Virus genome (UHGV): UHGV-0077406
Source: a virus
Reading direction: 5' to 3' (one strand)
DNA length: 16,665 nucleotides
Shown: one piece after another, positions 1,796 to 6,144 of the stretch
How positions within the stretch are numbered: the stretch's first letter is position 1
Layout of the letters: each line of letters begins with the position of its first letter
The notes under the pieces: model-generated
Database searches by the model: none
Told to the model about the DNA's origin: nothing
What the model saw: the letters and a program-made list of their open reading frames with translations, nothing else
Translations under genes and position numbers: made by a program

Positions 1796-1893
1796 TTTCT
1801 GTAGGCTTCGACGGCCTCACGAAACATCTTTTCATCGCCAATAAAAGCGGCGATAGTGAATTTAGTCTGGATAGCCATAAGTGTTTTATCCAT
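1780..1893 (-). CDS. kil: Kil-like small protein (37 aa; host cell-division inhibitor family)
   Basis: Internal ATG at 1893 preceded by AGGAG; product 'MDKTLMAIQTKFTIAAFIGDEKMFREAVEAYRKWRSK' resembles lambda Kil as I recall it; lies immediately downstream of cIII as in lambda. The longer 79-aa reading lacks a credible RBS. Confidence 0.5.
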   Translation of the reverse strand: MDKTLMAIQTKFTIAAFIGDEKMFREAVEAYRKWRSK

Positions 1894-2026
1894 TCTTTGG
1901 GACTCCTGGCTGATTAAGTATGTCGATAAGGCGTTTCCATCCGTCACGTAATTTACGGGTGATTCGTTCAAGTAAAGATTCGGAAGGGCAGCCAGCAACA
2001 GGCCACCCTGCAATGGCATATTGCAT
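1886..2026 (-). CDS. cIII: CIII (FtsH/HflB protease inhibitor that stabilises CII)
   Basis: ATG at 2026 preceded by AAGGAG; product 'MQYAIAGWPVAGCPSESLLERITRKLRDGWKRLIDILNQPGVPKNG' is near-identical to lambda CIII over the conserved core. The 80-aa extended reading from 2128 is rejected. Confidence 0.85.
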   Translation of the reverse strand: MQYAIAGWPVAGCPSESLLERITRKLRDGWKRLIDILNQPGVPKNG

Positions 2027-2085
2027 GGTGTGCTCCTTATTTATACATAACGAAAAACGCCTCGAGTGAAGCGTTATTGGTATGC

Positions 2086-2113
2086 ATATAAAAAGGCCCT
2101 CACACTGGAGGGC
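2086..2113 (-). terminator. Putative rho-independent terminator (minus strand)
   Basis: 6-bp GC-rich stem GCCCTC/GAGGGC with 6-nt loop; on the minus strand it is followed by TTTTTATAT. Confidence 0.45.
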
Positions 2114-2230
2114 AAAGAAGATTTCCAATAATCAGAACAAGTCGGCTCCTGTTTAGTTACGAGCGACATTGCTCCGTGTATTCACTCGTTGGAATGAATA
2201 CACAGTGCAGTGTTTATTCTGTTGTTTATG

Positions 2231-2258
2231 CCAAAAATAAAGGCCGACTATGCGGCCT
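2231..2258 (-). terminator. Rho-independent terminator after the SieB-like gene
   Basis: Stem AGGCCG/CGGCCT (6 bp, 6-nt loop) followed on the minus strand by TTATTTTTGG; lies 5 nt downstream of the stop of the 149-aa ORF. Confidence 0.6.
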
Positions 2259-2262
2259 GAAA

Positions 2263-2712
2263 TTACTTAACCAATGATGCTGCATATTCGATAAGGTAAA
2301 GCTTTGGGGCCAGCCAAATTTTTAACCAAGTCATATTGGTTACTACACCAATAATAAAAATCCCCCACAGAGTCAAAACTCCAACCAATGGCATGATAAG
2401 AAGATTAATATCACCTTTGCTATCCCAAACCATTGTCGGCCTGTATTTGGGATTTCCTTTCTCCCATGAATATCCTTCATCACCGATTTTACCTGTCTCA
2501 ACTCTTTGGCACTGCTTCTTCATAAACCAGAAAACCAGTGGGATTGTTAGAATGGCCATTAATGTTTTAATCAGACTGTCAACCATATTCCATAGCAGCA
2601 ACTGATGAACAACATCAGGAATCTGTGCCTGGCTAAATGAAACAGCCGCGTCTATTCCATTACTGGCTTTTTGCAGTAGTTCTACGAGAATCTTGTTTGC
2701 TTGTTCTTCCAT
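2263..2712 (-). CDS. Small inner-membrane protein with two predicted TM helices; possible superinfection-exclusion protein (SieB-like)
   Basis: 149-aa ORF with two hydrophobic segments ('LMAILTIPLVFWFM', 'LLIMPLVGVLTLWGIFIIGVV'); occupies the sieB position of the lambda pL operon between N and cIII; own terminator downstream. Function inferred from position. Confidence 0.45.
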   Translation of the reverse strand: MEEQANKILVELLQKASNGIDAAVSFSQAQIPDVVHQLLLWNMVDSLIKTLMAILTIPLVFWFMKKQCQRVETGKIGDEGYSWEKGNPKYRPTMVWDSKGDINLLIMPLVGVLTLWGIFIIGVVTNMTWLKIWLAPKLYLIEYAASLVK

Positions 2713-2851
2713 ATATCACCTTGATTGTAATAAGCATGAAATTATTTACGGACAAAAATAAAGGCCACCATCAGGCAGCCTTGTAGTTCTGTTTACCAAG
2801 TTCTCTGGCAATCATTGTCGTCGTTCGTATTGTCCACACCATTGATTTGTA

Positions 2852-2938
2852 TCAATAGTCGTAGTCATACGGATAGTCCTGGTATTGTTCCATCACATCC
2901 TGAGGATGCTCTTCGAACTCTTCAAATTCTTCTTCCAT
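2852..2938 (-). CDS. Small acidic, Tyr-rich peptide (28 aa)
   Basis: ATG at 2938 preceded by GAGGTGAT; product 'MEEEFEEFEEHPQDVMEQYQDYPYDYDY'. Below the ORF-track length cutoff; occupies the ral-equivalent position just downstream of N. Confidence 0.3.
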   Translation of the reverse strand: MEEEFEEFEEHPQDVMEQYQDYPYDYDY

Positions 2939-2996
2939 ATATCACCTCAAATAAGTGGTTTGCTGCCTAATTTCATTTTCTGGCGACCAACACAAG

Positions 2997-3380
2997 TCAC
3001 CTCGCCGTCAGTTGTTTTGATTTCCGGTAGCCTGCCGCGTAAATGGCTACGTTTGGAAGACATACACCAGTTTCTGGTTGCCTATGCCCAAACTCATTCG
3101 CGTACACAATGGCCGCTCTCTCCAGATTGCGTCTGTATTCTTTCTGTTGCCAGATCACGTCCTGTGCCATGAACTTAATTGGCTTAGCGTCTTCTATGCG
3201 CTCAGGCGTTTCGTGTTTACCTTTAGCCTGAATCTGTGCCAGACTGAGGGTAGGGCGGTGTAATACTTCTGAACTTATTGCTTCTTCGCGGGCCAGCACG
3301 CCGTTAGCTAATGCCTTTGCCTTTAAACGCTCACGACGACGAGAACGTGAATTGCCTTTGAACTGAGTTCTGCGTGTCAT
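2997..3380 (-). CDS. N: N-family transcription antiterminator (non-lambda specificity)
   Basis: First gene downstream of pL/nutL; AGGAGG RBS; N-terminal arginine-rich motif 'TRRTQFKGNSRSRRRERLKAKA'; 127 aa. Sequence differs from lambda N, so this gene lies outside the lambda-derived immunity segment. Confidence 0.7.
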   Translation of the reverse strand: MTRRTQFKGNSRSRRRERLKAKALANGVLAREEAISSEVLHRPTLSLAQIQAKGKHETPERIEDAKPIKFMAQDVIWQQKEYRRNLERAAIVYANEFGHRQPETGVCLPNVAIYAAGYRKSKQLTAR

Positions 3381-3545
3381 ATAGACCTCCTGATGAACTT
3401 TGGTGGTGTGGTAGGTGGGAGACCCATTTCGACCTGTTTCGGCCTACTTCAATTCGGCAATAGTCCCGCAGGCCTCGCCGCTTTACGTGCGACATATTCC
3501 CGTCCATGAACCCTTCACCACACCCCAAAGTTCACTTTGGTTATT

Positions 3546-3560
3546 GCGCTTTGTCAGCGC
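3546..3560 (-). promoter_or_regulatory. nutL boxB hairpin (P22-type GCGCUGACAAAGCGC)
   Basis: Minus-strand transcript reads GCGCTGACAAAGCGC, a 5-bp stem with GACAA loop, in the pL leader upstream of N; the same loop type recurs at nutR. Confidence 0.55.
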
Positions 3561-3628
3561 CGTAGATTCATATTCGAATCGTTGTATATTCACCGCCCTG
3601 GTGAGTAGTGCGTCCTGCTGATGTGTTT

Positions 3629-3691
3629 AGTATCACCGCCAGTGGTATTTATGTCAACACCGCTAGAGATAATTAATCACCGCAGATGGTT
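3629..3691 (-). promoter_or_regulatory. pL promoter with operators OL1 (3631-3647), OL2 (3655-3671), OL3 (3675-3691)
   Basis: Lambda operator sequences read directly: TATCACCGCCAGTGGTA, CAACACCGCTAGAGATA, AATCACCGCAGATGGTT. On the minus strand, -35 TTGACA (3652-3657) and -10 GATACT (3629-3634) are spaced as in lambda pL. Confidence 0.85.
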
Positions 3692-3833
3692 ATCTGTATG
3701 TTTTTTATATGAATTTATTTTTTGCAGGGGGCATTGTTTGGTAGGTGAGAGATCTGAATTGCTATGTTTAGTGAGTTGTATCTATTAATTTTCAAATAAA
3801 TACAATTGGTTATGTGTTTTTTTTGGGGGGGTA

Positions 3834-3869: not shown

Positions 3870-4802
3870 TTAAAGAACCGATTTAACAAGATGGTTTTTA
3901 CGGTACAGACCTATGCGATCATTGTGAATCTCAGTAGTCTCCACTAAAAGAGAAACAATCTGTCCGACCTTGTGTTTTTTTTGTATTAAATCTAGCATTT
4001 CAATCGGATAGGAAGCCTTTAAATGTTCACCACCAACATCAAGCTCCAGCTTCCCATATTTGGATAGAACGACCAGTTCGCCTGTAACCGTTTCAGTAAT
4101 GGGAGGGGATGAAATGGTTGATGTAAGTCTACTCACCAAGTACTTAATTTTATTGGAGTCAATAGTTGCCACCTTGGTGCCATTACTAAATGGACCGGTC
4201 CAACTTGCATCAAATGTTAAGTTGTGTTTATCGCATTCCTCTACGATTCTCTTAAGGCTTACAGTGGAATTGTATCCAATTTCAGCGACGTGATTCATGA
4301 AGTTGTTGTCGTCATCGCTTAACAACAAATCGAATATGCCTTTTACAGCCTTGCTGGGTACTGTTTCTACTAATTCTGCTATTCCTGTAGAGAAGGTGAC
4401 GCCCAATTTTGTAGACCCAGGGGATAAATCAGCCAGCCTGAGGTTTAAGGAGCTTTTCACGTCGTAGGGAACTTTTTTTGAGTCCTTGCCTGAGGCAATT
4501 TTGTGTGTTGCTCTTTGTATTAGCGCTGCAAGATTTGTTGAAATAGCCCCAAGCAGCTCTAAAGGAATAGAGCCAAAGTCAACCTCAGAGCCTTTCAGCC
4601 GCAGCTCAAAAAAATCGATAAGTGGGTGCCGACTATCTTGCTTTAATTTTTCGGCCTTCAAATCGCTCAGATGAGAATCCATGGAGCGATAAAGAAGCAT
4701 GTCAGCAAAGGACCTGGTTTTGTTTTGCTTCATTGCATCGACTTCTTTTTGAATGAAATCAATGCGTTTATCGCAATTTTTAAACATTGATTTATCATTC
4801 AT
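3870..4802 (-). CDS. Hypothetical 310-aa protein; second gene of the two-gene cassette in the rexAB-equivalent slot (candidate effector or sensor)
   Basis: Long AT-rich ORF; start at 4802 overlaps the stop of the upstream gene as ATGA; no TM segments and no catalytic motif I can recognise; unrelated to RexA or RexB as I recall them. Confidence 0.6.
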   Translation of the reverse strand: MNDKSMFKNCDKRIDFIQKEVDAMKQNKTRSFADMLLYRSMDSHLSDLKAEKLKQDSRHPLIDFFELRLKGSEVDFGSIPLELLGAISTNLAALIQRATHKIASGKDSKKVPYDVKSSLNLRLADLSPGSTKLGVTFSTGIAELVETVPSKAVKGIFDLLLSDDDNNFMNHVAEIGYNSTVSLKRIVEECDKHNLTFDASWTGPFSNGTKVATIDSNKIKYLVSRLTSTISSPPITETVTGELVVLSKYGKLELDVGGEHLKASYPIEMLDLIQKKHKVGQIVSLLVETTEIHNDRIGLYRKNHLVKSVL

Positions 4803-5278
4803 AAAAAAATCCTCACTAACCCTTTCGGGTTTTCACTGCGATCAAAACCAAACCAACCGCGCCAGTAGCTACGCCAGTACTCATAATCATAGTTAGGGTC
4901 ATCTAAATTCTTCATGAGTAGTAGGACATCAATTTTGTAGTTTTGTTTGATGTAGTTTCGGTCAAGCAAATTATCGACGCGGCCCCGAAGCATGACAGGT
5001 ATTGAGTTTATATTGCTATAGTCACATACCAACAAAATATCAATATCATCAGGCTCTGGTTTAGACGTGGTGTATGAACCATCAACCCATATTTCTGTAA
5101 AACAGCCATATTGAGCAGATAATTCTCGAATAGATTCGAGTAGCTGTATAAAATTACAGTATAGCATGCCTCGCCTGGATGATGAAGGAAAGCAATCGAC
5201 ACAATACGATTTTAATCCAGCTTCATCCATGTCATGGAACCCTGGCTCAAACAGGGGTGGGTAATTAATTTTATCCAT
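4799..5278 (-). CDS. Minimal pol-beta-superfamily nucleotidyltransferase (MNT/SMODS-like), 159 aa; first gene of the cassette
   Basis: Signature 'VDGSYTTSKPEPDDIDILLV' matches the hG[GS]-x9-Dh[DE]h NTase motif, with a possible third acidic residue in 'LLLMKNLDD'; Cys-rich N-terminus; co-oriented with cI and 149 nt downstream of its stop. Confidence 0.6.
   Translation of the reverse strand: MDKINYPPLFEPGFHDMDEAGLKSYCVDCFPSSSRRGMLYCNFIQLLESIRELSAQYGCFTEIWVDGSYTTSKPEPDDIDILLVCDYSNINSIPVMLRGRVDNLLDRNYIKQNYKIDVLLLMKNLDDPNYDYEYWRSYWRGWFGFDRSENPKGLVRIFL

Positions 5279-5427: not shown

Positions 5428-6144
<717 letters not shown>

Follow-up and report, generated by a model that had tools for sequence, protein, structure and literature searches.

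A repeated translation start ahead of orf28 and a membrane protein gene in a lambdoid early operon as a probable boundary between exchangeable cassettes

The repeated start and the two genes behind it

The viral genome UHGV-0077406 (16,665 nucleotides; this whole stretch is called the window below) has, at 2000-3700 on its minus strand, a leftward early operon of the lambda type in which one short sequence occurs twice, each time at the start of a different gene. The 17-mer TCTTCCATATATCACCT is matched exactly at 2705-2721 and 2931-2947 and has these two copies only in the window; a search of the window allowing up to three mismatches gave no further matches, the expectation being 0.05, and none of 200 shuffles contained two or more matches. 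The repeat is exact over 18 nt (AGGTGATATATGGAAGAA; 2704-2721 versus 2930-2947), and in its extended form 20 of 21 positions are identical (2701-2721 versus 2927-2947). Read on the minus strand, each copy supplies one open reading frame (ORF) with a Shine-Dalgarno (SD) sequence, an ATG and two glutamate codons (GAA GAA). An earlier sequence-only reading had reported this duplication, on which the exact scan and the shuffles agree, and had the two copies heading a 28-residue ORF and a second gene. They do head two ORFs on the minus strand, one of 28 residues (2852-2938) and one of 149 residues (2263-2712). The features of the interval are the following.

2930-2947, minus strand: repeat copy 1 (17-mer at 2931-2947), the translation initiation region of orf28; SD/anti-SD duplex of -12.9 kcal/mol
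2852-2938, minus strand: orf28, a 28-codon acidic, tyrosine-rich ORF, MEEEFEEFEEHPQDVMEQYQDYPYDYDY, equal to lambda orf28 (lambdap47; J02459 34271-34357)
2771-2868, minus strand: ral remnant, from alignment with lambda and CUS-3, with its ATG at 2868 and a 17-nt overlap with orf28
2753-2782, minus strand: terminator-like hairpin and T-run of ral, its 5' arm formed by the last ral codons (K-A-A); holds the 14-mer GGCCTTTATTTTTG at 2753-2766
2722-2752, minus strand: linker of 31 nt, TCCGTAAATAATTTCATGCTTATTACAATCA, that joins the ral terminator to repeat copy 2
2704-2721, minus strand: repeat copy 2, the translation initiation region of the 149-residue gene; SD duplex of -9.9 kcal/mol
2263-2712, minus strand: gene for a 149-residue predicted membrane protein with two transmembrane (TM) segments (phrog_3054, E = 4e-64)
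2232-2258, minus strand: terminator-like hairpin 3' of the 149-residue gene, ending in the second copy of the 14-mer (2232-2245)
2997-3380, minus strand: N antitermination gene, 127 residues, the upstream neighbour (Pfam N_peptide, E = 3e-15; phrog_271)

The stretch of 275 bp that separates N from the 149-residue gene is ral-region sequence, with matches in lambda, phage 21, CUS-3, Sf6 and hundreds of E. coli prophages. Within it, the 28-codon ORF is identical to its lambda counterpart in 87 of 87 nucleotides and 28 of 28 amino acids, and it matches phrog_16060 (E = 7e-19) over profile positions 1-28 of 28. The lambda GenBank record has this 87-nt coding sequence (CDS) at 34271-34357; ral (34087-34287) comes immediately after it, and the two overlap by 17 nt. 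In the window the ORF has the same ribosome-binding site (RBS), lies in the same place downstream of N in the P_L operon and immediately upstream of ral, and shares the same 17-nt overlap with the ral start. The surroundings differ, as lambda has sieB between N and orf28 and an intact ral followed by ea10, whereas in the window orf28 comes directly after N, and ral, with a 103-bp deletion, is followed by the 149-residue gene. By sequence identity orf28 is an already annotated lambda gene and not a new one. The sequence-only reading had placed it in the ral-equivalent position, which does not hold because the ral remnant lies directly downstream; orf28 is the normal upstream neighbour of ral. 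We also observed that the product labels in J02459.1 appear shifted, the orf28 CDS (34271-34357) being labelled 'ral' and the cIII and kil CDSs both being labelled 'kil'.

Compared with lambda and CUS-3, the 103-bp deletion is internal to ral, with its junction at about 2829-2833 in a GGACAAT/GGGCAAT microhomology. Thirteen Ral codons are left before a frameshift and a stop, which gives an 18-codon ORF (2812-2868), and the last 19 Ral codons continue out of frame down to the stop at 2771-2773. An intact Ral frame of about 66 residues (PF11058) is not present in the window, and ral is here a pseudogene. The deletion allele is widespread among prophages of E. coli, O55:H7 and O157:H7 strains included, and occurs both with and without the 149-residue gene downstream. 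PGAP names the 23-codon C-terminal fragment 'antirestriction Ral family protein' (for example in E. coli 90-3040).

The 149-residue ORF had been described as SieB-like. We reject this identity, as the SieB proteins of lambda, Oslo and SPN9CC match PF14163 at 1e-27 to 1e-30 and the 149-residue protein does not; BLASTP against Oslo SieB gave E = 0.53. Its orientation differs too, as SieB runs opposite to P_L and the 149-residue ORF is co-oriented with it, and in Oslo and SPN9CC sieB is a separate gene on the opposite strand that adjoins the homolog of the 149-residue gene. In J02459.1 no sieB CDS is listed, yet the ORF at 34482-35036 matches Pfam SieB. The annotation of the locus is corrected in that orf28 is present, the ral pseudogene still bears a Ral family name from PGAP, and the 149-residue gene is not SieB.

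The 149-residue protein has hydrophobic windows at about residues 43-64 and 109-130 and no match in Pfam (E <= 0.1), NCBIfam or PADLOC. Its family, phrog_3054, is old and widespread and has a conserved C-terminus (WLKIWLAPKLYLIEYAASLVK); homologs, often annotated as 'TMhelix containing protein', come from phages of Vibrio, Pseudomonas and Klebsiella, Salmonella Schitoviridae and rV5-like phages. These distant homologs begin MNEQ or MNDQ behind unrelated RBSs, and only the lambdoid versions begin MEEQ with an orf28-type RBS. The 149-residue gene therefore acquired this start, and not the reverse. The alleles of 149, 140 and 121 residues have nearly identical N-terminal (about 34 residues) and C-terminal (about 21 residues) portions, with a middle, including the loop between the TM segments, that is only about 50% identical or deleted. 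The 149-residue gene is itself mosaic, which suggests exchange anchored at its own ends.

The cassette boundary and its distribution

The 17-mer and 18-mer form the 3' core of a longer boundary with an 8-bp SD, an aligned spacing of about 6 nt, an ATG and a glutamate codon. A scan of IMG/VR contigs for the exact 17-mer gave 120 stretches, and these, the window and six annotated loci contain 132 occurrences: 91 head orf28, 31 head the 149-residue family and the other 10 lie in unrelated contexts, so that orf28 and the 149-residue family are the only genes headed by the exact 17-mer. When the boundary was searched for in degenerate form, with the starts of orf28 and the 149-residue gene set aside, three more cassettes were found, which start from ...GCAGCAAACCACTTATTTGAGGTGA(T/G)ATATGGA(A/G). 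The boundary and these cassettes are listed here.

2934-2966, minus strand: cassette boundary of about 33 nt, GCAGCAAACCACTTATTTGAGGTGATATATGGA, comprising SD, spacer, ATG and GA
Other phage contigs: 83-residue gene (phrog_2471) with the same boundary start
Other phage contigs: 62-residue gene (phrog_8831/DUF7167) with the same boundary start
Other phage contigs: 72-residue gene (phrog_16851) with the same boundary start

The boundary of about 33 nt thus heads at least five unrelated gene families and stands behind at least six different upstream sequences. Since the first two codons lie within the boundary, every cassette protein begins with Met-Glu. The joints at the other end of the cassettes are also shared in part: the 83-residue gene ends with the last four codons of ral (N-K-A-A-stop) and the ral terminator, the 5' arm of which those codons form, and the 62-residue gene ends with the terminator of the 149-residue gene.

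The 31 starts of the 149-residue family occur in two layouts. In 21 of them the gene stands in tandem behind the ral terminator and the 31-nt linker, as in the window, CUS-3 and Gally; the other 10 are of a fusion type, in which the upstream sequence of orf28 is joined exactly at the 17-mer and no orf28 or ral is found anywhere in the locus. The upstream sequences of the fusion type include lambda-type and phage-21-type versions and amount to at least three different backgrounds. The 149-, 140- and 121-residue alleles are each found in both layouts, and the 31-nt linker is followed by the start of the 149-residue gene in 29 of its 29 occurrences. The tandem junction is present in 139 of 5426 complete E. 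coli genomes, and the fusion junction is found in complete E. coli genomes as single-piece matches (for example RM11911 and O103:H2 strain 129). The sequence-only reading had taken the duplicated start as a sign of module shuffling; this is supported by the at least five unrelated genes with this start and by the 10 of 31 natural joins at the 17-mer.

The interval holds lambda orf28, a broken ral and, as we consider likely, a boundary that has been reused as the common left edge of interchangeable cassettes. On this reading it is the beginning of the first accessory-gene slot of the P_L operon (N, slot, cIII, kil). Read leftward, it holds orf28, the broken ral, the ral terminator, the 31-nt linker and the 149-residue cassette, and the window would have two copies of the 17-mer because two cassettes stand in tandem. 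The boundary would do two jobs, serving as a portable, very strong translation start and, being identical in front of unrelated genes, as a homology patch where lambdoid phages exchange, stack or lose cassettes; the right-hand anchor would often be the ral-type intrinsic terminator. Loss of orf28-ral through a crossover or slippage between the 18-mers would yield the fusion type, and loss of the 149-residue cassette through an exchange between the two terminator 14-mers would yield the lambda type. Products of both proposed deletions, that is the fusion type and the lambda type, exist in nature. Such exchange may proceed by homologous recombination or slippage, through annealing of the Red/Erf/Sak4 type or RecA. 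With a translation start on the left and a terminator on the right as anchors, a gene dropped into the slot would be expressed at once from the N-antiterminated P_L transcript. The locus would thereby offer a sequence-level example of early accessory-gene swapping in lambdoid phages in which expression signals double as recombination anchors. The slot holds ral and four families of unknown function and is therefore a sensible place to seek counter-defence genes.

The concept of lambdoid boundary sequences, cited in PMC3029335 (refs 21-22) and PMC2327257 (ref 9), is one of short conserved sequences proposed to mediate homologous exchange; they are conserved at the edge of unrelated modules in many lambdoid phages, and natural recombinants are joined there. 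The sequence in the window is likewise short, conserved between phages with unrelated flanking DNA, and the site at which natural recombinants are joined (the 10 fusion loci and the E. coli prophages). It differs in that it falls on a translation initiation region and takes in the first two codons. The CUS-3 record annotates boundary sequences as bsq features, and the 17-mer boundary is not among them in the part that was examined, which has only bsq5, between cI and N. The repeat is best read as a new, well-documented instance of this known kind of feature.

The 149-residue cassette can also be compared with a moron, a gene that has come to lie between phage genes together with a promoter and a terminator of its own. 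Like a moron, the cassette is either present or absent, here between the ral terminator and the downstream lambda-like sequence, and it has its own terminator and a copy of the 14-mer on either side. Unlike a moron, it is not preceded by any promoter-like site that we could find; it brings, or has captured, a translation start and not a transcription start.

Several points weigh against the explanation given above. At 18 bp the repeat is short for RecA- or Red-type recombination, and slippage or annealing has to be assumed. Either the tandem or the fusion arrangement may have come first, and the 31-nt linker is not accounted for. The IMG/VR loci are mutually related, so that the counts, including 10 fusion joins among 31 starts, are not counts of independent events. 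The translation of orf28 is itself inferred from the strong SD and the synonymous-biased substitutions described below. Finally, the boundary could have been kept as a good expression signal, with illegitimate recombination and selection leading to the same pattern.

Taken further, this last point becomes an alternative in which the boundary is an optimal expression signal or regulatory site only, precise joins having been selected after illegitimate recombination, and is no substrate for recombination. The near-ideal SD at its correct spacing would be expected under this alternative, the linker before copy 2 shows no relationship to the upstream portion of the boundary, and most phage mosaic joints are without conserved sequences (PMC3029335, PMC2327257). 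However, five unrelated genes share not only the SD but also the spacer, the ATG and the second codon, the 83-residue gene has the last four codons and the terminator of ral as well and is thus joined precisely at both ends, and the fusion joints, whichever of the three upstream backgrounds precedes them, agree nucleotide for nucleotide. We therefore regard a role in expression alone as unlikely. That the two 17-mers are independent strong RBSs, alike by chance or by convergence on a constrained SD and ATG at two functional start regions, is rejected as highly improbable, as none of the 200 shuffles held two matches even with three mismatches allowed, distant homologs of the 149-residue protein have other RBSs and begin MNEQ instead of MEEQ, and three more unrelated genes at the locus are headed by the same sequence.

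orf28 as a conserved acidic peptide next to ral

The orf28 peptide contains 12 D/E, no K/R and 7 aromatic residues, in keeping with its earlier description as acidic and aromatic, and has a net charge of about -12 and an isoelectric point (pI) of 4.05. It has no match in Pfam, PADLOC or NCBIfam, including their defence and anti-defence models. TBLASTN of the peptide against the phage collection also gave no match, the peptide being short and masked by the low-complexity filter. Table 1 of PMC10695390 lists lambdap47 as 'orf28, hypothetical protein' and as non-essential by CRISPR interference (CRISPRi), in a knock-down whose host lacked a functional Type I system, and lambda strains with a deletion of orf28-ral are viable (PMC2327257). 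In the literature search orf28 was merely listed, with no paper found that addresses it further, and the peptide string was not found in the literature searched.

A back-translated pattern of orf28 was scanned against the GTDB representative contigs (one genome per species) and matched 23 contigs, for example from Shewanella, Pseudomonas, Nocardioides, Oceanobacillus and Bradyrhizobium. Nineteen of these share at least the first 120 nt of the lambda orf28-ral region and 14 share the full 285 nt, and several are contigs of about 48.4-48.5 kb or tiny, low-coverage ones. Since lambda sequence is shared here across unrelated taxa, we rejected these matches as a real distribution of orf28 and attribute them to contamination of public assemblies with lambda DNA.

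The variation in orf28 was followed in distinct haplotypes from IMG/VR contigs, 63 of which entered the count of intact frames. Outside its overlap with ral, orf28 has 9 variable sites, 8 of them at codon position 3; variants that are frequent are silent without exception, and each replacement is a singleton. Counted in six frames, the distinct changes are 12 synonymous to 4 replacement in the orf28 frame, with 14% expected to be synonymous (binomial p = 5e-8). The two other sense frames across orf28 have no synonymous bias; only one further frame is enriched, an antisense frame whose wobble positions coincide with those of orf28 (p = 9e-5), and it contains no open ORF of at least 20 residues across orf28. 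All 63 haplotypes retain an intact orf28 frame, with ral alongside in 54 and a broken ral in 9. The SD of orf28 is the strongest among the genes of the region that were checked and lies beyond the 1st percentile of the 20-mers of the window. orf28 thus very probably encodes a peptide that is under purifying selection.

We also compared orf28 where ral is broken and where it is not. Counted per locus, amino-acid variants are found in 6 of 10 loci with a broken ral versus 7 of 87 others (p = 3e-4), whereas the same contrast per haplotype is not significant (p = 0.17), and 13 of 17 additional deletion-junction loci retain the consensus peptide. Relaxed selection on orf28 after the loss of ral is therefore a hint only, not robust at the haplotype level, and was not accepted.

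Ral and orf28 belong to the same cassette, where the stop of orf28 overlaps the start of ral, and are found together in 54 of 63 haplotypes; they share no sequence and are of opposite charge (pI 8.8 for Ral versus 4.05). This arrangement raises an alternative in which orf28 is a leader ORF only, its strong SD bringing ribosomes to the weak, overlapping start of ral, and the peptide has no function. By pairing with the 16S tail the SD of ral reaches -4.0 kcal/mol, versus -12.9 for orf28 and -9.9 for the 149-residue gene, which together with the 17-nt overlap and the near-constant pairing of the two genes would fit a leader, and the translation of ral is plausibly coupled to that of orf28. Ral is moreover active by itself from a plasmid, against Type I restriction-modification systems (PMC12373910), so that orf28 is not strictly required for Ral activity. 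However, a pure leader should tolerate amino-acid changes, and the changes observed are biased 12 to 4 towards synonymous ones, with silent frequent variants; orf28 is also intact in 9 of 9 haplotypes in which ral is broken. A leader without a functional peptide is thus rather doubtful.

A second alternative takes up the suggestion of the sequence-only reading that the peptide is a DNA mimic or anti-restriction factor, here standing in for Ral. Its extreme acidity and aromatic residues, its place in the same cassette as the anti-restriction gene ral, the purifying selection and its intactness where ral is broken would all agree with such a role. Against it, orf28 accompanies ral in 54 of 63 haplotypes instead of substituting for it, no family, PADLOC or NCBIfam match was found, and Ral alone gives the anti-Type-I phenotype in the plasmid screen (PMC12373910). 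The size of the peptide is a further difficulty. Ocr and ArdA are folded proteins of more than 100 residues that act as dimers and, like orf28, are strongly net negative; orf28 has 28 residues and no sequence match, and its likeness to them lies in charge composition. With 28 residues it is far below the size of the known DNA mimics, the smallest of which, to our knowledge, is twice as long. A DNA-mimic role at this length is unlikely, and one in place of Ral we find distinctly improbable.

More tentatively, and with the odds still against it, orf28 may be a functional 28-residue acidic microprotein of lambda, either a modulator or partner of the basic Ral or an independent charge-mimic peptide of counter-defence or host takeover. 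Such a role would have been overlooked because the gene is below the length limits of gene callers and dispensable in laboratory hosts. What is most interesting here is a conserved acidic peptide of 28 residues adjoining ral in lambda itself; a 28-codon ORF of the best-studied phage is very probably under purifying selection without a known role.

Neighbouring features of the early operon

Upstream of N, O_L/P_L-like operators lie at about 3629-3690, with a promoter-like TTGACA-17-GATACT at 3657-3629, and lambda-like cI and cro are found to the right of the region. Rfam gave no RNA family over the interval from orf28 to the 149-residue gene, its only match being the cIII thermoregulator (Lambda_thermo) at the start of cIII (2000-2039), with 50.4 bits versus a gathering score of 50. 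In this part of the window (1886-2039) the cIII frame stops after codon 46 (...PKNG*NTYGYPD), and lambda cIII has 54 codons. In the mechanically called 79-residue 'Kil' ORF (1780-2019), homology to Kil begins only at an internal ATG at 1893, what lies before it being an upstream extension.

A Sak4-like ssDNA-annealing ATPase (phrog_2872, E = 4e-108), encoded at 906-1586 on the minus strand, takes the place of the lambda Red functions and is a candidate for the activity that could anneal short repeats, the 18-mer among them. Two co-oriented minus-strand ORFs of 159 (4799-5278) and 310 residues (3870-4802) lie between the lambda-like cI (5428-6141) and P_L, at the position where lambda has rexA and rexB. 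Over its full length the 310-residue protein matches PDC-M63B, a candidate defence family of PADLOC (E = 7.5e-45); it also matches phrog_6603, and the two ORFs are probably a prophage-encoded defence pair that replaces rex.

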